Part shown: in pieces, positions 843 through 63,197 of the stretch
How the letters are laid out: every line of letters begins with the position of its first letter
Numbering within the stretch: the stretch's first letter is position 1
The notes under the pieces: model-generated
What the model was told of the DNA's origin: nothing
What the model saw: only the letters and a program-made list of their open reading frames with translations
Database searches by the model: none
Assembly: GCA_040755995.1 (NCBI GenBank)
Contig: JBFMAF010000055.1
Coordinates: 160,001-224,000, forward strand
From: Acidobacteriota bacterium
Lineage (GTDB): Bacteria > Acidobacteriota > CAIWXX01
Direction: 5' to 3'
Length of the DNA: 64,000 bases
Translations under genes and position numbers: made by a program

Positions 843-3236
843 TCACTCCATGACGGCATCGACCGTGGGCGCGGCAGGGGCCTTGGGCACCAGCGCCTCC
901 TTCAGCACCTCGCTGACTTCCTCGGTGAATATGAACGACATTTCTCTGCGGATCGGCGGGGGGATGTCATCGAGGTCCTTCCGGTTCTGAGCCGGCAGTA
1001 TGACCTTCCTGACGCCGGCACGCCTGGCCGCCAGCACCTTCTCCTTCACGCCGCCGATCGGCAGCACCGTGCCTCGCAGCGTGATCTCCCCCGTCATGGC
1101 TATGTCATGACGGACCGATTGGTTCGTCAAGGCGGAGATCATAGCCACTGCCATCGTGATGCCGGCCGACGGGCCGTCCTTGGGGATCGACCCCTCGGGG
1201 ATGTGAACGTGGATGTCGTGTTCTCCGAAGACCTGGTCCGGGATCTCGAATTCGGCGGCGTGCGTTCTCGAGAAGCTGAGAGCGGCGTGCGCCGACTCCT
1301 TCATGACTTCGCCGAGGTGGCCGGTGAGCAGGAGGCTTCCTTTGCCCTTCATCACAGTGGCCTCGATGAACAGCACGTCGCCGCCGGTCGCAGTCCATGC
1401 CAGGCCCGTCGCAACACCGACACGATCCTTCTTCATCGTCTCTTCGCGGAAGATGCGCGGCGGGCCGAGAAGCTTCTCGACGCGCGAACCGCTCAGGATC
1501 TTGGGCACCTCCTTGCCCTCGGCAATCCTGCGCGCCACCTTGCGACAGATCGATGCCACCTCGCGCTCGAAGTTCCGCAGCCCGGCCTCCCGCGTGTACT
1601 CACCGATAATCCGGCGCAGCGCCCCTTCTCCGAAGCGGAACGTGCCGGCCAGTATGCCGTTCTCCTGCATCTGCTTCGGGATGATATGGCGGTACCCGAT
1701 CTGTATCTTCTCCTCCTCGGTGTAGCCCGAAAGGAAGATCACCTCCATCCTGTCGCGGAACGCGGGATGGATCGGATCGAGGAGGTTGGCAGTAGTAATG
1801 AACATGACGTTGGACAGGTCGAAGGGGACGCCCAGATAGTGGTCACGGAAGCTGAAGTTCTGCTCGGGGTCGAGCACTTCCAGCAGCGCGGATGACGGGT
1901 CGCCGCGGAAATCGGCCCCGATCTTGTCCACCTCGTCCAGCATGAACACAGGGTTGCTCGATCCACAAGTGTGGATGCCCTGAACGATGCGGCCCGGCAT
2001 CGCCCCCACGTAGGTGCGCCTGTGCCCGCGGATCTCCGCTTCGTCGCGGACTCCACCGAGCGACATACGGTAGAACTTGCGCCCAAGCGCCCGGGCAATG
2101 GACCGGCCCAGCGATGTCTTGCCAACGCCGGGTGGACCAACGAAGCAGAGGATAGGCCCTTTCATCTTGTCCTTGAGCTTCCGGACCGCCAGGTACTCCA
2201 GGATCCGCTCCTTCACCTTCTCCAGGCCGTAGTGATCCTCGTCGAGGATCTTGTGCGCGGCGGCTATGTCCAGGTTGTCTTCCGTCTGGACGGACCACGG
2301 AAGGTCCACCATCCAGTCCAGGTAGTTGCGAATTGTGGCGGTCTCGGCCGAGTCCGGGTGCATCCTCTCCAGTTTCTTGATCTGCCTCTCGACCTCCTCC
2401 TCCACCGACGACGGCATCTTCGCCTTCGCCACCTTCTCGTGATAGTGCTTGATCTCCTCGGCCAGCTCGTTGCCCTCGCCCAGTTCCTGTTGGATCGCCT
2501 TGAGCTGCTGCCGCATGAAGTATTCCCGCTGCACCTTGTCCATCTCGCCTTTGGCTTGGGTGGAGATCTGTTGCTGGATCGTCAGCAGCTCCACCTCGCG
2601 ATTCAGAATGCTGTGCACCTTCTGAAGACGGTCGACGGGCGCGAGCACCTCCAGCACCTCCTGAGCCTCCGCGACCTTGAGCTCGAAGTTGGACGCAATC
2701 AAGTCGGCCAGCCGGCCGGGGTCCTCCATGTTCTGGACCACCACCTGGATCTCCGGCGATATCTGTTTGCCGAGGCTGGTGGCCCTGTCGAGAATAGCCT
2801 TGACATTCCTGACCAGAGCCATTGTCTGCATGTTTGCGCGGTCGACCTCCGGCTCGTTCAAGATCTCGAGGGCGCTCTCCATGTACTCCTTACTCATGTC
2901 TACCTGAGCGAGACTCGCGCGCGCCAACCCCTGAACCAGAACCCGGATGCGGTTGTCAGGCAGTTTCAGCATGCGCATGATCATCGCCACCGTCCCCACC
3001 TTGTAGATGTCTTCCTCGACCAGGTCCTCCTTCTCGCCCTCCCGCTGCGCGACCAAGAGGATCATACGGTTGTGAGTCAACGCCTGATCCACGGCCTTTA
3101 TCGACTTCTCACGGCTGACGTACAACGGGACGATCATGAAGGGAAACACCACGATGTCCCGCAGCGCCAGCAAGGGCAGCGCGGCCGGTATCTGGAGCTC
3201 CTGTTCCTTCCCTTCGTTCGCCTCTGATTCACCCAC
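843..3236 (-). CDS. lon: ATP-dependent Lon protease
   Basis: LON N-domain LPLLALRDIVVFP, Walker A GPPGVGKTS, catalytic PKDGPSAG and IGGVKEK. Confidence 0.98.
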   Translation of the reverse strand: MGESEANEGKEQELQIPAALPLLALRDIVVFPFMIVPLYVSREKSIKAVDQALTHNRMILLVAQREGEKEDLVEEDIYKVGTVAMIMRMLKLPDNRIRVLVQGLARASLAQVDMSKEYMESALEILNEPEVDRANMQTMALVRNVKAILDRATSLGKQISPEIQVVVQNMEDPGRLADLIASNFELKVAEAQEVLEVLAPVDRLQKVHSILNREVELLTIQQQISTQAKGEMDKVQREYFMRQQLKAIQQELGEGNELAEEIKHYHEKVAKAKMPSSVEEEVERQIKKLERMHPDSAETATIRNYLDWMVDLPWSVQTEDNLDIAAAHKILDEDHYGLEKVKERILEYLAVRKLKDKMKGPILCFVGPPGVGKTSLGRSIARALGRKFYRMSLGGVRDEAEIRGHRRTYVGAMPGRIVQGIHTCGSSNPVFMLDEVDKIGADFRGDPSSALLEVLDPEQNFSFRDHYLGVPFDLSNVMFITTANLLDPIHPAFRDRMEVIFLSGYTEEEKIQIGYRHIIPKQMQENGILAGTFRFGEGALRRIIGEYTREAGLRNFEREVASICRKVARRIAEGKEVPKILSGSRVEKLLGPPRIFREETMKKDRVGVATGLAWTATGGDVLFIEATVMKGKGSLLLTGHLGEVMKESAHAALSFSRTHAAEFEIPDQVFGEHDIHVHIPEGSIPKDGPSAGITMAVAMISALTNQSVRHDIAMTGEITLRGTVLPIGGVKEKVLAARRAGVRKVILPAQNRKDLDDIPPPIRREMSFIFTEEVSEVLKEALVPKAPAAPTVDAVME

Positions 3237-3251
3237 CTCACCACCTCCGTG

Positions 3252-3698
3252 TTATTCCTCTTCGACCGGCACCTCGATCTCAGATCCACGTCGATCCCTG
3301 ATGATCGGCAGCTTGACAGTCAGCACCCCGTCCTTCAGCCGCGCTGTCGTATTGCGCGCGTCGACAATCTGCGGCATGTGAACTACTTTCTCAAAGCGCC
3401 CGTGCGAGATCTCCATACAGTGAAAACATACGAGAGCGTTTTGCGGATAGCGCGTCGGACGCTTAAGGCCACGGACGAAAACCGCGTTCGAGCGAATCAG
3501 AACGCTGATCTCCCCACGCTCGATCCCGGGCAGGTCCACCCTGATGAACACATGCTCGCCCTTCTGAAAGACATCGGACGGCGGGTCCCACAAGCCGGCG
3601 GTGGATCCAGTAGGAGACTCCAGGAAGCGCTCGAAGAGACTGTTGATCTCTTGGTGGATCCTGGCGAGATGAGGGTACTGATAGACGCTCTTTGGCAT
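3252..3698 (-). CDS. Hsp20/alpha-crystallin small heat-shock protein
   Basis: VDLPG, EISHGRFEK, ARLKDGVLTVKLP; immediately upstream of lon. Confidence 0.93.
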   Translation of the reverse strand: MPKSVYQYPHLARIHQEINSLFERFLESPTGSTAGLWDPPSDVFQKGEHVFIRVDLPGIERGEISVLIRSNAVFVRGLKRPTRYPQNALVCFHCMEISHGRFEKVVHMPQIVDARNTTARLKDGVLTVKLPIIRDRRGSEIEVPVEEE

Positions 3699-53413: not shown

Positions 53414-53790
53414 TCACACCCAGTATACTAACTTGTATGCCACCCAGAAGCAGGCGAAGCAGATGCCGACAATTCCGCTGACGCAGAGCGCGAGGACTGG
53501 TGCGAGGCGGCGGTCGAGTTCGGGGACCTTCGCGCGAGAGTAGTTGCGGAGGAAGACTGCGTAGGCCACCAAGGCGAGGAATATCCCGGCGATCACGTCG
53601 GAAACGTAGTGCTGCTTGGTGAACAGTGTGGATATCGCGACGAGCGAAGCGCACAACATTGCGACGAGTCCAAGTGTGCGATGCACGCGATAGCAGGCCA
53701 GTGCTGACACGAAGGAGTGCGCGACGTGGAGGGAATGAAGGCAGTTATATGGCGGGTCGGCGTCGTAGAGGAACCCTCTCCTGCGAGTCC
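53414..53790 (-). pseudogene. C-terminal part of a PAP2-superfamily membrane phosphatase/phosphotransferase
   Basis: DPPYNCLHSLHVA and TKQHYVSDVIAG; N-terminal half absent. Confidence 0.7.
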
Positions 53791-53835
53791 ATGAGGCAGA
53801 CCACCTCCGCGCGCGCTTCCGGTCTGCTGCAAACA

Positions 53836-54564
53836 CTACTCCTGCACATCAACCGGGATCCTGAAGTCGTCGTCGCTCAGGGGTATGTTGACCTCGATAC
53901 TGGCAACCGTCGCCGTCTGCGTCCCGTCCTGGCGACCCGGGTAGACGAAGCTGCGAGGGAAGAGGATTCCCCCGGCAGGTTCGAAATCCGAGAAGGCGCG
54001 CTCCATGTGGTAATCATTCCCGCCCACGACGATGTCAGACGCTGCCCTGCGGACCAGAAAGGCATCGCCATCTACGTAGTACGTCATCTTCGCCCCGAGC
54101 GGCAGTGAGACGGCCAGTTTGTGCATCTCGGTCCCGCCGGCAACCTCCGAGCCGAGGTGCTCGTATGGGTAGTCGAAGAACGCTGGAATGAACCAGGCGA
54201 TGTCGACCTCGAAATCCTTCAGCTCGTCATCTGGTATGAGCCGGGGGCGGAAAGACGCGCCGGTCTGTCCGGTGGGGTCCTTCAGGAGACATCCGCGTGT
54301 GCCATCGAAGACGGTGATCCGGGTGCGGATCTTGTTCGGCCGTCTTATTTCGCAGAAGATGGGTGCCGCTCCGTGATCCGGATAGACTATGCCGATGCGC
54401 AAGGTTCGCAGAGCCCTGATCGTCTCCATCCCGCCCATGGCCTTCGCGCACAGCGCCACGATCTGATCGGCGCGGGCGGATGGTTGCCCCGCCGCCGGCC
54501 ATCGGCTCGAGGCAAGTGCGACGACAAGCCCCGCAGCAAGCCAGCAACCGCCGTGATCACGCAT
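53836..54564 (-). CDS. Exported hypothetical protein
   Basis: RBS GGAGGAG, signal-like N-terminus, AMGGME..L.TL and INIPLSDDDF as in LolA-like-fold exported proteins. Confidence 0.7.
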   Translation of the reverse strand: MRDHGGCWLAAGLVVALASSRWPAAGQPSARADQIVALCAKAMGGMETIRALRTLRIGIVYPDHGAAPIFCEIRRPNKIRTRITVFDGTRGCLLKDPTGQTGASFRPRLIPDDELKDFEVDIAWFIPAFFDYPYEHLGSEVAGGTEMHKLAVSLPLGAKMTYYVDGDAFLVRRAASDIVVGGNDYHMERAFSDFEPAGGILFPRSFVYPGRQDGTQTATVASIEVNIPLSDDDFRIPVDVQE

Positions 54565-57810: not shown

Positions 57811-58014
57811 TCAAACCCCGAGAGTATTCCGTGTTTGACGCTCCCACCGGGATTGGTACTCGTGAAGTGTCTGTGCGAACTGGTCAAGCGAGTTGAGGCA
57901 CAACATGTTGGCATCGATGGCAAAAGCATAGAACGTCTCGCTCGGATGGTCGCGGGCGAAACGCTCAATGCTGGAACGGCAGTAGTCGAGAAGCTTGTCA
58001 ACCTCGAACGCCAT
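57811..58014 (-). pseudogene. N-terminal fragment, DUF4303-like
   Basis: IERFARDHPSETFYAFAID...LCLNS; only 67 codons. Confidence 0.5.
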
Positions 58015-58029
58015 TATTGTCCCGGACCC

Positions 58030-58087
58030 TTGACAAGCAACAAGACTGTTGCTATCCTGGAAGTCGAGTAGCAACAGAATTGTTGCT
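58030..58087 (+). promoter_or_regulatory. Sigma-70 promoter with two palindromic operator-like sites
   Basis: TTGACA-17 bp-TATCCT; AGCAACA-N4-TGTTGCT at 58036-58053 and at 58070-58087. Confidence 0.88.
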
Positions 58088-58132
58088 TCTGATGCGATCC
58101 ATGGGAGACGTCATCGATAGGAGGTTCATGCG

Positions 58133-59359
58133 ATGGCAACTCGAAGCATTGCGGGTGGCGTGCCGGAACCGGAGGAGTTGATCGGCCGGCAGCACACAAT
58201 CGAGTTTATCTGGGAGCAACTGGCTGCCAACAACGTCCTATTGGTCGCTCCGAGGAGGTTTGGTAAGACAGGGGTCATGGGGCACCTGTTGAAACGTCCC
58301 CGCTCCGGGTACCTTCCCATTTACCTCGATGTCGAAGAACTTGAAGATCCCGATCGCTTTGCCGCCGCCCTGATCGCTGCGCTTCTGGAGCAGAGTGAAC
58401 TGCGGGCGCTTGTTTGTGGAATCAAGGGCCTTCCGACGAGGGTTGTGGACTTCATCAGCGGGCACATTGGGCACGTCAAGGCCGATGTATTCGAGATTGA
58501 ACTGAAGGACGTTGTGAAGGATTCCTGGGGTGTTGTGACTCGTACCCTGGTGCTTGAGATGGAGAAGGCAACTGAAACGGTCCTCTTCGTCATTGATGAG
58601 TTTCCGCAGTTTGTTGAGAACCTCGGTCGTAAACACGGGGACGACTCCGCGAGGCAGTTCCTCCAATGGTTCCGGTCACTTCGGATGCATCAGAAGGATC
58701 GTCTGCGTCGCTACCGCTTTGTGCTGGGCGGTTCGACAGGCATCGACATGATCTTGCGTCGCCTCGACGTACCCGACAAGCTGAACGACTTCTTTCGTGT
58801 CCCCATTGAAGCTCTCAGTCCTGAAGCGGCGAAGGACCTCCTGAACAATCTCGCCATGAGTTACGATGTCCGTTTCACGGATGAAGGGCGCGCGGTTCTC
58901 TTCGAGTTAATCTCTCCGCCCGTTCCCTACTTCCTCCAATTGCTGGCCTCACAGATTCGGATGGATGAGAAGCTGAAGGGGAAAGAGCTTACGGCGGATG
59001 ACGTCCGTGACGTCTACTCCCGTCGTCTTCTCGGCCCTACCTGCCGTGCCTACTTCGATTATTACCACAGGCGCCTCAAACGCTATGGCGCGCCTGGTGA
59101 ACGTGCGGCGTTGGCCATCCTGCAGGAGATCTCAAGCGCGCCAGGGGGACGCGTTTCGAACAGCATGCTCTACGACGTCTATCGCAAGACCCGCAAGCGA
59201 GGGGCGTCCAATTTCGAATTCGACGATATCATGGCCGACCTGGAAACGGACTGGTATGTTCTGCTCGATACGAAAACCAACGAGTACGGCTTCCTGCTGA
59301 ATGTGATCAGGGACTGGTGGCAACGCTTCCACCGAACGCTTCGCGTGAAGGGAAAGTAG
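58133..59359 (+). CDS. P-loop AAA+ ATPase (archaeal-ATPase/STAND-related) with probable C-terminal wHTH
   Basis: LIGR, LLVAPRRFGKT, LFVIDEFP, GGSTG, PYFLQL; RBS AGGAGG. Confidence 0.88.
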   Translation: MATRSIAGGVPEPEELIGRQHTIEFIWEQLAANNVLLVAPRRFGKTGVMGHLLKRPRSGYLPIYLDVEELEDPDRFAAALIAALLEQSELRALVCGIKGLPTRVVDFISGHIGHVKADVFEIELKDVVKDSWGVVTRTLVLEMEKATETVLFVIDEFPQFVENLGRKHGDDSARQFLQWFRSLRMHQKDRLRRYRFVLGGSTGIDMILRRLDVPDKLNDFFRVPIEALSPEAAKDLLNNLAMSYDVRFTDEGRAVLFELISPPVPYFLQLLASQIRMDEKLKGKELTADDVRDVYSRRLLGPTCRAYFDYYHRRLKRYGAPGERAALAILQEISSAPGGRVSNSMLYDVYRKTRKRGASNFEFDDIMADLETDWYVLLDTKTNEYGFLLNVIRDWWQRFHRTLRVKGK

Positions 59360-59370
59360 CAGGCGACTCG

Positions 59371-61899
59371 ATGGCGTACGCGCGACTGGCATACGACCCT
59401 TGGGAGATTCCACCAGAGGAGCGCAGGGCCACTCTTGTAGGACGCGAAGCGTTGCTACAGCAACTTCTGTCGGCTGTCCGTGAGCAAGAGGGTCATCGGA
59501 CCATTCAACACTATCTGCTGCTGGGACCCCGTGGGATAGGCAAGACAACGGTTCTGCTCACCTTGCGCGACCGAGTTCGCGAAGATCCACATCTATCGAA
59601 GCGCTGGTTCTGCGTCCAGCTTCGCGAGGAGGAGTATTTCATCCGCACGTTGCGGGACCTGTTGGACCTCACACTACAGGCACTAGCGAGCGATGAGAAC
59701 CTGCCCGAAGCGTCTGATCTCGCGCAACGGGTGCACGACGAACATGACGGCGAAAGGAGCCGCGCGATTGCAGTCGATGGGCTGCGCACCATTTCCAAGA
59801 TGCACGACAAACGGATACTGCTCCTCATCGACAACTTCGACCAGGTCTTCCCCCGGACCCCTACTGGTCGCAGGAAGACGCGTTCGGCCCAGAACGAGTA
59901 CCGAGCCTTTCGCAAACTCCTCAGCGGCGAGAGTTCCATCATGGTCATCGGAGCTTCGGTCTGCCTCTTCGAGGAAATCGCCGCCTACGACCAGGCGTTC
60001 TTCAATTTCTTCTGTCCCGTCGACATTCCGAATCTGACTGACGATGAGATCTGCGAGCTTCTACGGAAGCGAGCCGAGGCGGATGCGAACCCCGGGTTTG
60101 TGCAGAACTTCGAGGAGGTCAAAGACAAGGTACGGGCAATCACGTACATCACCGGCGGCAACCCACGCCTGGTCCTGATGCTTTACGACGTGCTTCGCCA
60201 GCGCGAGATGCTGCCCGTAGTTCAGGCCCTCCGCGAGACCGTCGGCAGCCTCACCCCCATGCTCAAGCACGTCCTGGACGACATGCCCCGCCAGCAAAGC
60301 AAGACGCTCGATGCCCTTGTACGTCTTGGAGGCGCCGCCTCGCCTAGCAACATTTCCAGGTTGGCGCGCCTGCCGCTCAACGTGGTGACTGCCCAGTTGG
60401 GCCGACTGAGGGATGCCAGATTCGTATCGGTTGAGGGCCAGGGAAAGGGGAAGCCTGCGACCTACCGGGTCTCGGACCCGATGTTCCGAACCTGGTACCA
60501 GATGCGCTACCTTCGGCCGGCTGGACGGCGCATCGAGCTCTTCGTCGAGTTCCTTCGTGTCTGGTTCTCAGTGGAAGATCGCAGGCGATTCCTGGAAGAG
60601 CGCTGGCAGCAATTCCAGACTTGTGTTGACGGTGGCCCCCATGCACGCCTCGCCGAAGTCAGTCTCGGAATCGAGTACTTCGCAGCGAGTCTGGAGGACC
60701 AGCATGAACGTCGGGCGCAGTTCGAGCGGCTCGCCGACGGTGTGTTCGAGGCAGGACGCAGCCAGCAGGCGGCGCGCCTACTTGCAGAATTCGCAACCCC
60801 CGCCGCCATGTCGGAAGCGAGCTATGAAGCGACGGGATACCGCATGTTGGGTGACAGGCTCATTGACAAAGGAGACCTCGCAAGAGCTATCGAGACCTAC
60901 AGTGCAGCGCTGGAAAGGGATCCGCAGAACGTGGAAGCCCGCATCTGTCTGGGGCTTTCATTAGGGCGCTCTGGAGATCATTCAAGGGCCAAGGAAGAGT
61001 TGGACAAGGTGATTAGTAACCCAGCCCTTCGGAATGGCACTCTCTCGAGCGCGCTCCTCAACCGGGCCGTCGCCGAGTGGGCCTTGGGTGACCGGGAGGG
61101 CGCGATTGCCGATTACACTGCTGTAGTGGAGCTGCCAGGGGCAGCGCCCGGGCAGGTGGCCACAGCGCTCGTCGGGCGGGGTTTGGCCAAGCAAGCCTTG
61201 GGTAACGATCACGGAGCCGTATTCGACTACACGGCTGCAGTGGAGCTGCCGGAGGCCTCAGCCAAGCACGTGGCCCTCGCACTCGCCAGCCGGGCTCACG
61301 CCAAGAGGGTCTTGCGCGACACCCAGGGGGCGATTGGGGACTACACAGGCGTCGCGGAGTTGCCGGGCGCCACGCTGGAGCAGATCGCCCAAGCGCTGCT
61401 CGCGCGGGGTGTTGCGCTAGCGCAACTTGGCAGGAGGACGGATGCGATTCGAGATTTCGAGCGGTGCACGGAACTCAAGACCGATGCTGATTCTGTTTAC
61501 AGAGCGTTTGCCTTGCAGATGAAGGCTTACTTGACGGACGGCGGACTCCAAGAGGCGACAGAATGTATTTCAAGACTGCATAAGATCGAACCGGAGAGTG
61601 CGCCGTTGGAGGAGCGCCTCGAAGCCAGGGTGAGGGCGATCATCAGTGCCGGGCGCGAGCACTCGCTCGATTCCGCATCGACGGTCCTTGAGGCAGCGAT
61701 GCACCACGATCCGGATGCCATCCGTGAACATCTGGCGTTCCTGCAGCCAGCCATCGAGCTGGCCAGAACGGGCAGTGAGCAGGTCATTGCCGCATTGCCG
61801 GACCAGGAGCGTGAGCTCGCGAAACAGATTGCGGCGGTCCTTGTCCGAAAGGCAGGCCAAGACGGTACTCTGGACCCGAACAGCGAGAAGCAGCCGTAA
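59371..61899 (+). CDS. AAA+ ATPase - winged HTH - TPR repeat protein
   Basis: LVGRE, LLGPRGIGKT, LLLIDNFD, GGNPR, wHTH (SPSNISRLAR...QLGRL...YRVSDPMF), TPR-like repeats. Confidence 0.88.
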   Translation: MAYARLAYDPWEIPPEERRATLVGREALLQQLLSAVREQEGHRTIQHYLLLGPRGIGKTTVLLTLRDRVREDPHLSKRWFCVQLREEEYFIRTLRDLLDLTLQALASDENLPEASDLAQRVHDEHDGERSRAIAVDGLRTISKMHDKRILLLIDNFDQVFPRTPTGRRKTRSAQNEYRAFRKLLSGESSIMVIGASVCLFEEIAAYDQAFFNFFCPVDIPNLTDDEICELLRKRAEADANPGFVQNFEEVKDKVRAITYITGGNPRLVLMLYDVLRQREMLPVVQALRETVGSLTPMLKHVLDDMPRQQSKTLDALVRLGGAASPSNISRLARLPLNVVTAQLGRLRDARFVSVEGQGKGKPATYRVSDPMFRTWYQMRYLRPAGRRIELFVEFLRVWFSVEDRRRFLEERWQQFQTCVDGGPHARLAEVSLGIEYFAASLEDQHERRAQFERLADGVFEAGRSQQAARLLAEFATPAAMSEASYEATGYRMLGDRLIDKGDLARAIETYSAALERDPQNVEARICLGLSLGRSGDHSRAKEELDKVISNPALRNGTLSSALLNRAVAEWALGDREGAIADYTAVVELPGAAPGQVATALVGRGLAKQALGNDHGAVFDYTAAVELPEASAKHVALALASRAHAKRVLRDTQGAIGDYTGVAELPGATLEQIAQALLARGVALAQLGRRTDAIRDFERCTELKTDADSVYRAFALQMKAYLTDGGLQEATECISRLHKIEPESAPLEERLEARVRAIISAGREHSLDSASTVLEAAMHHDPDAIREHLAFLQPAIELARTGSEQVIAALPDQERELAKQIAAVLVRKAGQDGTLDPNSEKQP

Positions 61900-61912: not shown

Positions 61913-62610
61913 TTGGCACGGAAGGTGCCGACGGGGTGGTTTCGGCAGTCTTGGATCCGCTCAATCCTGGTTCAGCGGTTGATCGCGGTTCCCTTCAAGC
62001 AACTCTACTCACCGAACGGGATGCAGTGGCTCCGGCCCCTGGCACTGGAGCGAGATGACCGGCAGGCGATCGACAGCGAGCTCAGGCTCCTCGATTCAAT
62101 CGAGCACGAGATTCGCGAGATGGAGCAGACACTCATTCAAGCAGCATGGCAGGAGGATCGAGCTCGACTGTTGATGACGCTGTCCGGGATCGACTTCTGC
62201 GGTGCTCAGTCACTGATGGCGACGATGGGAAATCTCAGGCGGTTCGAGGACGGGGACCACTTCGCAAGTTATCTCGGGTTGGTGCCGTCGACGCGGGCGT
62301 CGGCAGATCACTGTTACCACGGGCCGATCACGAAGCAGGGGCGGAGTCATACCCGATGGATGTTGATTCAGGCCGCACAGCACGTGGCCGATCATCCCGG
62401 GACCGTTGGGACAGTTCTTCCGGCGGCTGCTCAAGAAGAAGAATCGTAACATCGCCGCCGTGGCGGTGGCGAGGAAGCTGGGCGTGATCGCGTACCACAT
62501 GCTCAAGAACAACGAGCCCTACCGGTACGCACTGCCGGATTCAACCGGGCAAGAGCCGGCGCAACTCCGATCCCAGGCGACAGGCCAAAGGCGTCTGCGA
62601 AGAGGAGACC
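61913..62610 (+). mobile_element. IS110-family transposase remnant (5'-truncated, frameshifted)
   Basis: LMTLSGI, RF..GDHFASYLGLVP, GPITKQG, frameshift near 62405 into KKKNRNIAAVAVARKL; DEDD N-domain missing. Confidence 0.88.
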
Positions 62611-62693
62611 AGCGCTGGGGGCCACCACGCCCCCCAGTGGCCGATCACCAGAGCTGCAATCCTCAGAGGTATTCGTTGGGCCCCGCCCCACTT

Positions 62694-63197
62694 CTAGAAG
62701 TAGACGATCTCGCCAGTGGGGATGTAGCACCTGATGTAGGACCGCGTGCTTTCCGGGAATCGGTCGCTGAGAGGATGAAGCCGTTCCTCGATGACCGGGC
62801 CGAGATCTACGCGGGTCGGTACCTGTACCGCGAATTCGCGAATGCCGTAACTGTCTCGGGTGTAGTCACGTATCAGGGTGAGCTCGCCGTTCCTGACCAG
62901 GATTGTCATTCCGATCGGGGTGCCTTCCACGGAGCCGACTGTTGTGGAAAGGCCGAAAGAACCCCTGCCCGAGAGATACACATCGAGGAAGCGTTGGCGC
63001 TGAGCAGACTCGGATGAGGTTGACAGACGTTCAATGGCCGGATCATGAAGGGCAGCGGGTGTTCGGAAGGTACGATGGTATAGACCCTTGGCCGGGCCGT
63101 AGAACTGCGTGGCAGAGACGAGCACCAGGAAGAGAGCTGCTAGTAGGACCGCAGAAACGGCGAGGAGGATTCGGTATGACTTCGGGAGGGCTGCCAT
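62694..63197 (-). CDS. Hypothetical membrane-anchored cassette protein
   Basis: Starts just after attC R' GTTAGGC; followed by lone R''-like GCCCAAC at 62675-62681. Confidence 0.75.
   Translation of the reverse strand: MAALPKSYRILLAVSAVLLAALFLVLVSATQFYGPAKGLYHRTFRTPAALHDPAIERLSTSSESAQRQRFLDVYLSGRGSFGLSTTVGSVEGTPIGMTILVRNGELTLIRDYTRDSYGIREFAVQVPTRVDLGPVIEERLHPLSDRFPESTRSYIRCYIPTGEIVYF

Follow-up and report, generated by a model that had tools for sequence, protein, structure and literature searches.

STAND and ORC/Cdc6-like ATPases are at the basis of processes that range from innate immunity and apoptosis to the control of transcription and the licensing of replication. STAND NTPases are said to have been defined, by Leipe et al. 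in 2004, by the combination of a nucleotide-binding domain (NBD), a helical domain and a winged helix. These three parts make up the NOD of STAND NTPases in the account given in PMC6468293, which also describes MalT and PH0952 (the latter by prediction) as transcription factors in which a STAND core with tetratricopeptide repeats (TPRs) is joined by a separate DNA-binding domain. Among Orc1/Cdc6 homologues, Orf8 of SNJ2 is described as a signal-activated regulator of transcription (PMC10123103), and the Aravind group has described defence-linked operons that encode an active Orc/CDC6 protein, a second copy in which Walker A is intact but Walker B disrupted, a KAP NTPase and effector fusions (PMC10853773). 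In the MoxR-vWA ternary conflict systems, a catalytically impaired STAND-like protein (iSTAND) occurs with a separate active AAA+ protein (PMC7159879). Here we analyse two adjacent ATPase genes (open reading frames (ORFs) 1 and 2) in a 64,000-nt stretch of contig JBFMAF010000055.1 of an Acidobacteriota bacterium (the whole stretch is hereafter called the window; the carrier genome comprises 7,735,285 bases, that is, 7.74 Mb, and is 99.84% complete). The two genes and the operator in front of them constitute an undescribed module that is widespread but sparse and common to bacteria and archaea, and what is new here is the presence of conserved palindromic operators on the operon's own promoter.

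The nearest described theme, compared by description, is that of the operons with Orc/CDC6 proteins and a KAP NTPase (PMC10853773), in which an active Orc/CDC6-like protein likewise shares an operon with a paralogue whose Walker B motif is degenerate; ORF2, with its intact Walker A and disrupted Walker B motif, has the features reported there for the second copy. As far as those operons are described, the window differs in that ORF1 carries no STAND, TIR or pentapeptide fusion and in that the TPRs and a C-terminal domain sit on the degenerate ORF2. Nor was a linked KAP NTPase found, as no third gene recurs in the 80 related loci introduced below and no KAP protein occurs among 249 neighbouring ORFs. 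Whereas iSTAND, as described in PMC7159879, is accompanied by MoxR and vWA proteins with effectors, the partner here is a paralogue, with neither vWA nor effectors. The module as we picture it shares with SNJ2 Orf8 an Orc1/Cdc6-like AAA+ protein, signal-dependent transcription control, small size and palindromic operators, but Orf8 belongs, by description, to a three-gene proviral module with a separate winged helix-turn-helix (wHTH) repressor, no paralogous partner and no TPRs (PMC10123103). The main text of a 2026 survey of 589 STAND clades (PMC13581612) does not contain the terms 'two-gene', 'operon', 'paralog' or 'Cdc6', and its sections 5 and 15 present no paired paralogues; in the main texts of the literature searched, supplementary tables (in which the family may be listed) aside, no description of the ORF1/ORF2 pair or of its operator was found. 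PADLOC, NCBIfam and Pfam gave no system-level match, in agreement with the initial annotation, which had recognised no named system; the module lies outside every curated family tested, ORF2 alone reaching generic AAA_16 and TPR models.

Coordinates and translations agree with the initial annotation in that the two ATPase genes are intact, co-oriented and separated by 11 nt (59360-59370), with the Walker motifs given in Table 1. By profile comparison, ORF1 is a paralogue of the first ~400 residues of ORF2 (that is, ATPase, lid and winged helix): hhalign of the two alignments returned a probability of 94.4% (E = 9.4e-8) over 331 columns, matching ORF1 residues 16-396 to ORF2 residues 22-399. 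A homologue scan with one genome per species yielded 101 relatives, from which 80 loci, all in metagenome-assembled genomes, were kept. An ORF2 homologue lies directly 3' of ORF1 on the same strand in 77 of these, and the three loci with an unpaired ORF1 (L018, L039 and L056) stop at a contig or locus edge within or just past ORF1; the linkage that the initial annotation had named as a test of its proposal is thus conserved. When ORF2 was instead used as the starting point, 121 same-phylum genomes contained eight loci in seven genomes (E <= 1e-30), and ORF1 stands immediately upstream in six of the eight, the window included. Among the flanking ORFs of the 80 loci, clustering brought out no further conserved gene (the cluster that comes next is present in 8 loci, in scattered places), and a stop-to-stop search produced no conserved small ORF near the module; the recurring small-ORF 'clusters' that this search brought up were rejected as the ORF2 tail, an antisense shadow of ORF2 or translated operator DNA.

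The two genes have also diverged together. When loci are compared in pairs, the identity of ORF1 correlates with that of the ORF2 NOD module (r = 0.97 over 1830 pairs from 61 loci; 0.96 and 0.99 inside the two major groups), and the mean divergence over the 61 loci is equal for ORF1 and the ORF2 NOD module; we therefore consider that the two have been co-inherited without partner swapping. Complex prediction with custom alignments was run on the TPR-less pair of locus L010 and gave an ipSAE of 0.65 (0.64-0.67 between runs) against 0.00 for the best of three controls, the mark for this score having been reached in a benchmark by 116 of 157 solved complexes and by 2 of 215 mismatched pairs. The runs share at least 72% of their contacts, with a partner pLDDT of at least 80. 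In the predicted interface, ORF1 residues 4-12 (including the invariant R4, G8 and P11) lie against the strand that precedes the ORF2 P-loop, and R41 and R42 of the ORF1 P-loop are also included, with the C-terminal domain of ORF2 outside the confident contacts. Given the paralogy, the co-evolution and the complex prediction on the homologous pair, the hetero-oligomer suggested in the initial annotation is favoured.

The third component of the module is a pair of palindromes, O1 and O2, of the form AGCAACA-N4-TGTTGCT, which lie 34 nt apart (start to start) at a predicted promoter that a consensus scan scored with 10 of 12 matches, with a TG. With up to one mismatch allowed, O1 and O2 are the sole sites of this 18-nt palindrome in the 7,735,285 bases of the genome (control, 0), and its 16-nt core has two sites in the window against 0.10 expected. 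Across the family, the shorter core AACA-N4-TGTT lies within -150 to +10 of ORF1 in 66 of the 79 loci with enough upstream DNA, archaea included, and in two or more copies in 38 of them, the background being 12 matches in the 1,163,640 nt of remaining locus sequence. The flanks of the operators read AGCAACA or AACAACA in the group to which the window belongs (group A), GCGCAACA in the second bacterial group and ATATAACA in archaea, and the spacing of adjacent sites is 32-34 nt in 22 of 24 pairs of group A and 16 nt in 16 of 18 pairs of the second group. All 11 aligned upstream regions of group A keep the order -35/O1/-10/O2, with TTGACA (TTGAAA in one region) and a TAnnnT -10 element at a fixed place, and DNA farther 5' is not conserved. 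In five other carrier genomes, the operon sites were recovered and additional 16-nt matches occurred at the level of a reversed-pattern control; the four of these that were fetched were discarded as single copies with no pair nearby. No genes other than ORF1 and ORF2 are conserved beside the sites, and the product of each contains a winged helix; the most economical inference is that these proteins would bind the palindromes and repress their own promoter, and the earlier suggestion that the wHTH domains provide the output gains support from these conserved operators.

ORF1 is the simpler of the two proteins. Its AlphaFold2 (AF2) model (pLDDT 81.6) comprises an AAA+ core, a helical lid and a winged helix, and D155 and E156 are invariant across 32 aligned homologues, so that its Walker B motif keeps the D-E pair predicted for a hydrolysis-competent ATPase. 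The best Foldseek matches of the model are 2qen and 2fna (E ~1e-9; TM-score 0.54-0.65 over ~400 columns), with archaeal Orc1/Cdc6 structures next (2qby, 1w5t, 2v1u and 1fnn, at E 5e-8 to 1e-6), followed by eukaryotic ORC, RFC, CED-4 and plant NLRs. With regard to the helical insert that is specific to initiators (between strand 2 and helix 2), both models contain several helices between core strands 2 and 3 (ORF1 residues 73-145 and ORF2 residues 94-145), which may or may not correspond to it. By sequence, all Pfam matches of ORF1 to AAA families are sub-threshold, no Pfam, NCBIfam or PADLOC model scores above its cut-off (PADLOC, 0 families) and a look-up in the ESM Atlas gave generic 'ATP-binding protein' clusters only. 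Longer, fused forms of ORF1 were not found, which is weak evidence; of seven ORF1 homologues scanned, four with N-terminal extensions, six gave nothing informative. In the seventh, P0364 (612 aa), an AbiEi_4 antitoxin-type wHTH (1.6e-13) stands N-terminal to the ATPase, which reflects either a genuine fusion or the merging of gene calls.

Two groups of solved structures resemble this protein. The PF01637-type archaeal ATPases PABY2304 (2qen) and SSO1545 (2fna) have the size and domain order of ORF1, but no paralogous TPR partner or operator is described for them, and the cut-off of the corresponding Pfam family, ATPase_2, is not reached in the window (ORF2 scores 21.4 bits with a gathering threshold of 33.2, and ORF1 is not listed; precomputed PF01637 matches are present in some homologues). 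A literature search on PABY2304 found no paper. The AAA+ core, lid and C-terminal winged helix that characterize ORC/Cdc6 proteins are present together with Orc1/Cdc6 fold likeness, and Orc1-1 and Orc1-3 of S. solfataricus on origin DNA (2qby) offer a further parallel in that two paralogues lie side by side and dyad sites stand beside the gene. However, the likeness of ORF1 to archaeal Orc1/Cdc6 proteins is marginal in a sequence profile search (an Orc1/Cdc6 chain, 2qby_A, is the sole structure match, at E 0.0099), ORF2 differs from them by a TPR array, a C-terminal domain and a D-N Walker B motif, and the module, unlike an initiator locus, has sites that overlap a promoter and is sparse, accessory, also bacterial and found in no replication context.

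The AF2 model of ORF2 (pLDDT 86.1) contains an AAA+ core, a lid, a winged helix, arm helices and an array of helical repeats (that is, helix pairs), and Pfam matches are to AAA_16 (4.5e-13), to TPR_2 (2.1e-17), TPR_8 and TPR_1 above their cut-offs at residues ~488-702 and beyond, and weakly to HTH_20 at residues 319-354, so that the winged helix and TPRs read from the sequence earlier are borne out. Foldseek places the STAND-TPR protein 6mfv (PH0952) first, then TPR proteins, Avs3 (8dgc), NLRs and Orc1/Cdc6 (2qby and 2v1u), and the best PADLOC matches, mad8 (E 0.0022) and Csa3 (E 0.0026), are not significant, nor are any others (E 0.002-0.01). The lack of the catalytic Glu in the Walker B motif, which the initial annotation had pointed out, is a trait of the family, in which N155 is invariant and 30 of 30 sequences have [DE]N; from this invariant D/E-N pair and the general AAA+ mechanism, ORF2 probably binds ATP and hydrolyses it poorly. 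The winged helix within the NOD module is the only helix-turn-helix (HTH)-like region of ORF2 and seems to be of the MarR/ArsR/Csa3-HTH type, with matches to MarR_2 and HTH_20 that rise above the cut-off in homologue P0238 and a resemblance to the HTH region of Csa3. P0238 also passes the Pfam model ORC-CDC6-like (33 versus 27 bits) over the P-loop part only, and some homologues pass nSTAND1. Homologues of ORF2 are 505-1382 aa long because the TPR array varies in length: the longest ones have extra TPRs, and those of 505-552 aa lack the array and retain the C-terminal domain, in which F790, P793, L806, L809, P810 and A817 are near-invariant. Identity to the nearest relatives is 42-48% in the TPR region and 71-75% in the NOD module. 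Searches with Pfam, PADLOC and NCBIfam revealed no nuclease, TIR, SIR2 or transmembrane domain in ORF1 or ORF2, and none was found in four long ORF2 homologues scanned, in keeping with the absence of a visible effector in the initial annotation; 'OmpA' and 'LytR_C' labels on long homologues were dismissed as repeat artefacts (pieces of 25-50 residues inside TPRs, with 0 passing stretches).

Measured against STAND NTPases, both proteins have the core of NBD, helical domain and winged helix (AF2 strand order, lid helices and winged helix; Foldseek matches to CED-4, NLRs, 6mfv and Avs3), and a C-terminal repeat sensor after the arm is found in ORF2 but neither in ORF1 nor in some ORF2 homologues. 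A terminal effector domain was not found, the content of ORF1, ORF2 and the long homologues being ATPase, winged helix and TPRs. ORF2 has the order of NOD, arm and TPRs seen in PH0952 (6mfv), MalT and Avs3 with the rest of the Avs family; it differs from these STAND-TPR proteins by the absence of a terminal effector or DNA-binding domain (no separate LuxR- or ArsR-type domain of the kind found in MalT, LAL proteins and PH0952 was detected), by the D-N Walker B motif, by the conserved C-terminal domain and by the existence of TPR-less forms. At the level of the module, the differences are an obligate stand-alone paralogous ATPase partner and the lack of a PADLOC Avs match for either ORF.

Table 1 Features of the ORF1/ORF2 module and its upstream region (positions are those of the window)
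Feature	Position	Strand	Remark
Sigma-70-like promoter (predicted)	58030-58058	+	-35 TTGACA 58030-58035, 17-nt spacer, -10 TATCCT 58053-58058
Predicted operator O1	58036-58053	.	AGCAACA-AGAC-TGTTGCT; fills the -35/-10 spacer
Predicted operator O2	58070-58087	.	AGCAACA-GAAT-TGTTGCT; just 3' of the -10 element
Putative ribosome-binding site AGGAGG	58119-58124	+	8 nt 5' of the ORF1 ATG; read from the sequence
ORF1	58133-59359	+	408 aa; AAA+ ATPase, lid and C-terminal winged helix
ORF1 Walker A APRRFGKT (residues 39-46)	58247-58270	+	
ORF1 Walker B IDEFP (residues 154-158)	58592-58606	+	
ORF1 winged-helix region	about 59090-59302	+	
ORF2	59371 (ATG)-61899	+	842 aa
ORF2 NOD module, ATPase-lid-winged-helix (residues 1-400)	59371-60570	+	
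ORF2 Walker A GPRGIGKT (residues 52-59)	59524-59547	+	
ORF2 Walker B IDNFD (residues 153-157)	59827-59841	+	Asn155 invariant
ORF2 winged helix (residues 307-367)	60289-60471	+	From the model
ORF2 arm helices and TPR array (residues 401-740)	60571-61590	+	Variable; sensor or scaffold
ORF2 conserved C-terminal helical domain (residues 741-830)	61591-61860	+	Motif ~R-L-x-F-L-x-P-A...L-P-x-E-E-R...I-A

We propose that the module is a self-repressing two-subunit ATP switch of the ORC/Cdc6-like/STAND kind, a model to which we give about an even chance of being correct. ORF1 and ORF2 would form a heteromer through their ATPase domains, in which the conserved N-terminal strand of ORF1 docks at the edge of the ORF2 sheet and the Arg-Arg pair of the ORF1 P-loop lies at the interface. 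One subunit or both would then bind the O1 and O2 palindromes by the winged helix and, as O1 fills the spacer between the -35 and -10 elements and O2 covers the start region, binding would be predicted to repress the operon (that is, negative autoregulation). A protein or ligand signal would be taken up by the TPR array and C-terminal domain of ORF2 and be converted into an altered nucleotide state, oligomeric state and DNA binding, and hydrolysis by ORF1 would reset the switch. Given that the module contains no enzymatic effector, its output is expected to be DNA-directed (binding, occupancy or remodelling) or plain de-repression. With regard to the biological role, a sensor of mobile elements or of conflict and a switch that responds to stress or physiological signals are both possible, to the same degree, and each somewhat short of probable; a selfish addiction-like module seems improbable, and a role of some other kind is unlikely, if not to that extent. 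We also consider an ancient, cross-domain 'mini-ORC', in which a heteromer of the active and the degenerate subunit is parked on its own palindromes until a trigger at the TPR and C-terminal sensor causes it to leave or spread and to act directly on DNA, for example as a block to the replication or transcription of invading or host DNA; although we regard this as rather unlikely, it would, if true, be an immune or stress switch whose effector is an ATP-driven DNA-binding assembly with no enzyme domain.

Several observations weigh against the self-repressing switch. Regulation of nothing but itself has no evident purpose, and an output is absent from the switch as proposed. The promoter, start site and repression are read from consensus and position alone, 13 of the 79 loci have no strict AACA-N4-TGTT core (several have one-base variants), and perfect palindromes would be expected for a symmetric dimer more than for a heterodimer. 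The protein that binds the palindromes could also be a host factor encoded elsewhere. In phage contigs, tandem CAACA-N4-TGTTG palindromes serve unrelated XRE/Cro-CI-type switch regions, so this type of palindrome is by itself not diagnostic. AAA+ assemblies are numerous among solved structures, and the complex prediction may lean on likeness to them; the L010 proteins on which it was made are only 57% and 53% identical to ORF1 and ORF2 of the window. The linkage has its irregularities too: the ORF1 match is only partial or split in six loci, in all of which ORF2 is present (L016, L024, L031, L034, L041 and L042; possibly decaying copies, insertions or assembly errors), and the two weakest ORF2-like loci of the same-phylum search, both in genome G067, have no ORF1 upstream. 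In L016, ~1.5 kb separates the ORF1 match from ORF2. The two genes of G067, L130 (G067:C72) and L131 (G067:C57), encode proteins of 767 and 826 aa with an E-N Walker B motif, TPRs and a similar C-terminal motif, an Hsp70-like gene standing beside one and a TonB-C-like gene beside the other, and may represent a sister subfamily with a different partner.

A scan for two-site palindromes returned 31 viral stretches (L093-L123), none of which encodes a relative of ORF1 or ORF2 (tblastn E <= 1). In these, tandem CAACA-N4-TGTTG palindromes stand beside a TTGACA -35 element; in the one example read (L094, positions 2719-3274 of a viral contig), they lie between two divergent XRE/Cro-CI-type HTH genes, and the region looks like a phage lysis-lysogeny switch that shares the module's operator core. 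Because no viral stretch encodes a relative of the pair and L094 is a Cro-CI-type switch region, the idea that the module targets phage operators was dropped.

The family is large. Against 1.84 billion cluster representatives (50% identity), the ORF1 profile found 3581 matches at E <= 0.001, 1880 at 1e-10 and 653 at 1e-30, and each protein has hundreds of metagenomic homologues that are named only 'hypothetical' or 'TPR repeat protein'. The 80 loci come from bacteria (Acidobacteriota, Verrucomicrobiota, Planctomycetota, Lentisphaerota, Chloroflexota, Gemmatimonadota, Latescibacterota, KSB1, Aminicenantes, Omnitrophota and others) and from archaea (Methanosarcinales, Methanoperedens and ANME). 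At close range, the module is rare and patchy: it is single-copy in the carrier genome, no orthologue turned up in either of two same-family genomes searched, distant relatives (25-29% identity) occur in 2 of 38 genomes of a same-phylum sample and ORF2-like genes occur in 7 of 121 same-phylum genomes. A quick maximum-likelihood tree of ORF1 is grouped mostly by phylum, with a few odd labels and with Acidobacteriota in two separate clades, and the viral contigs searched contain no ORF1 relative.

The neighbours of the pair were surveyed with Pfam for the 249 nearest ORFs (up to two per side) of 74 loci, in a rough tally made by eye without a matched control. Genes of defence-like or mobile character (toxin-antitoxin, methylase, transposase or TIR-type) account for 14 of the 249 ORFs, in 11 of the 74 loci: ParE, PIN, UPF0175, SocA, DUF3800, two methylases, two IS200-like genes, a serine recombinase, a TIR fragment, SIR2, a PDDEXK ATPase and PNKP. 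The others are mainly housekeeping or metabolic (for example, MutS/MutL, sigma-54, KARI, ClpB, carbamoyl-phosphate synthase, argininosuccinate synthase, efflux pumps and glycosidases), and the flanks are partly common to related archaea (that is, local synteny). In an ANME-2/Methanosarcinales locus, the pair is closely preceded by a gene for OapC, an origin-associated protein (L067, 1111-1524, + strand), and a gene for the DNA primase large subunit lies near the pair in L076; either adjacency may be due to chance.

This neighbourhood bears on the initial annotation, in which the pair was put forward as a candidate defence or conflict system to be judged by enrichment near defence or mobile genes, a test that the tally fails, with no viral relative to set beside it. 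A defence role is possible, but without contextual support. In its most explicit form, ORF1 and ORF2 would be an effector-less or split antiphage STAND of the Avs kind, in which the ORF2 TPRs recognise a protein of the phage, oligomers of the pair form and abortive infection is brought about by ORF1, by consumption of ATP or by occupancy of DNA, the operators merely holding a toxic system at a low level; we consider this a tentative alternative on the unlikely side. Tight autoregulation is common among toxic modules, and the patchy distribution described above, the division of Acidobacteriota over two clades of the tree, the varying number of TPRs in a region that diverges faster than the NOD module and the lower G+C content of ORF1 (0.55-0.57 versus 0.61-0.65 nearby) would all suit a defence gene. 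Fold matches to Avs3 (8dgc) and NLRs and the combination of NOD and TPRs agree with the comparison to Avs receptors that was drawn at the outset, and an active together with a Walker-B-disrupted Orc/CDC6 protein is described as a defence-linked theme in PMC10853773. The architecture is, however, the only part of that comparison to stand: PADLOC returned no significant match, let alone an Avs model, no effector domain is found in ORF1, ORF2, the four long ORF2 forms or a fused ORF1 (the search for fusions being a weak one), and the neighbours are mostly housekeeping genes, with no enrichment beside defence genes in the rough tally. The clades moreover largely track phyla, with synteny kept among related archaea, both proteins are strongly and equally constrained, the viral contigs contain no relative and the TPR-less forms retain the rest of the module.

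The operators allow two further interpretations, of which one takes the sites on the operon's own promoter as the autoregulatory part of a larger regulon, with ORF1 and ORF2 as a signal-responsive transcription factor pair of the MalT/LAL/PH0952 type that controls non-adjacent genes. The winged helix of MarR/ArsR type and the conserved operators on the promoter speak for it, the top fold match of ORF2 is a predicted STAND-TPR transcription factor (PH0952, 6mfv; PMC6468293) and Orc1/Cdc6 homologues are described as able to regulate transcription (PMC10123103). Yet the 18-nt palindrome (up to one mismatch, weaker and half sites lying outside the search) occurs only at the operon in 7.74 Mb, the extra 16-nt matches in five other genomes stay at control level and the four fetched were single and unpaired, no target genes are conserved in the neighbourhood and neither ORF1 nor ORF2 has the separate terminal DNA-binding domain of MalT and PH0952, and we hold this interpretation to be doubtful. 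In the other, the palindromes would serve a cryptic or domesticated element as an origin or as a partition-like site, and the two paralogues would assemble on them as a cis-acting ORC-like initiator or maintenance module. Archaeal origins have sites immediately upstream of the initiator gene, and here, too, palindromes stand immediately 5' of an initiator-like gene whose product has fold and weak sequence likeness to Orc1-1/Orc1-3 on origin DNA; the palindrome is conserved across domains, and OapC lies beside the pair in one archaeal locus. We regard an initiator as very improbable, as the sites fall precisely on the spacer between the -35 and -10 elements and on the start region of a promoter, replicon genes such as a helicase or an integrase do not recur around the pair, and the loci are chromosomal, among housekeeping genes, with no viral or plasmid-like context found.

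The remaining features of the window concern the limits and surroundings of the module. An alternative ORF2 start, GTG at 59317, would give a protein of 860 aa, and the ATG at 59371 matches the N-termini of homologues. The G+C content of 0.55-0.57 over ORF1 (58000-59500), compared with 0.61-0.65 in the surrounding 20 kb, is compatible with a foreign origin or with a composition specific to the family. Directly 3' of ORF2 lies the IS110 relic of the initial annotation, a 178-aa frame (61913-62449, + strand) that matches Transposase_20 only (C-terminal domain, 1.1e-20); the frame that overlaps it (62406-63017, + strand) has no family match. An 87-aa frame at 57811-58074 on the - strand, antisense over the promoter and O1/O2 region, has no Pfam family, is unconserved in related loci and is probably not a gene. 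The decay reported for neighbouring genes, a claim followed up in part, is supported by a 140-aa PAP2 frame (53414-53836, - strand) that matches only the C-terminal part of its profile (PAP2_3 positions 108-189 of 190) and may be a truncated gene. The integron cassettes between which the pair was said to sit did not reappear: a crude attC scan (R''/R' cores and arm complementarity) gave 0 sites in the window, and neither a tyrosine recombinase match nor a repeated cassette boundary was found there, all of these being weak tests. The sole Phage_integrase match on the contig is a tyrosine-recombinase fragment ~14.5 kb past the end of the window (G000:C55:238483-238740, - strand; a 124-aa frame, profile positions 95-168). 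Scans of the window for tRNA genes and Rfam families returned nothing.

Nearly all prokaryotic STAND proteins studied are single proteins with a built-in effector. The module described here represents a large family, without a curated model or name, that is predicted to divide its work between an active ATPase and a paralogue that bears the sensor and is impaired in hydrolysis, and that comes with a DNA site of its own, shared by members as distant as Acidobacteriota and ANME archaea. Should its role turn out to be defence, the system would lack an enzymatic effector. With two proteins and one 60-bp DNA fragment, it is a compact, testable system for studying how ligand sensing, nucleotide state and DNA binding are linked in asymmetric AAA+ heteromers, and it bears on the relation between ORC-like initiators and STAND switches.

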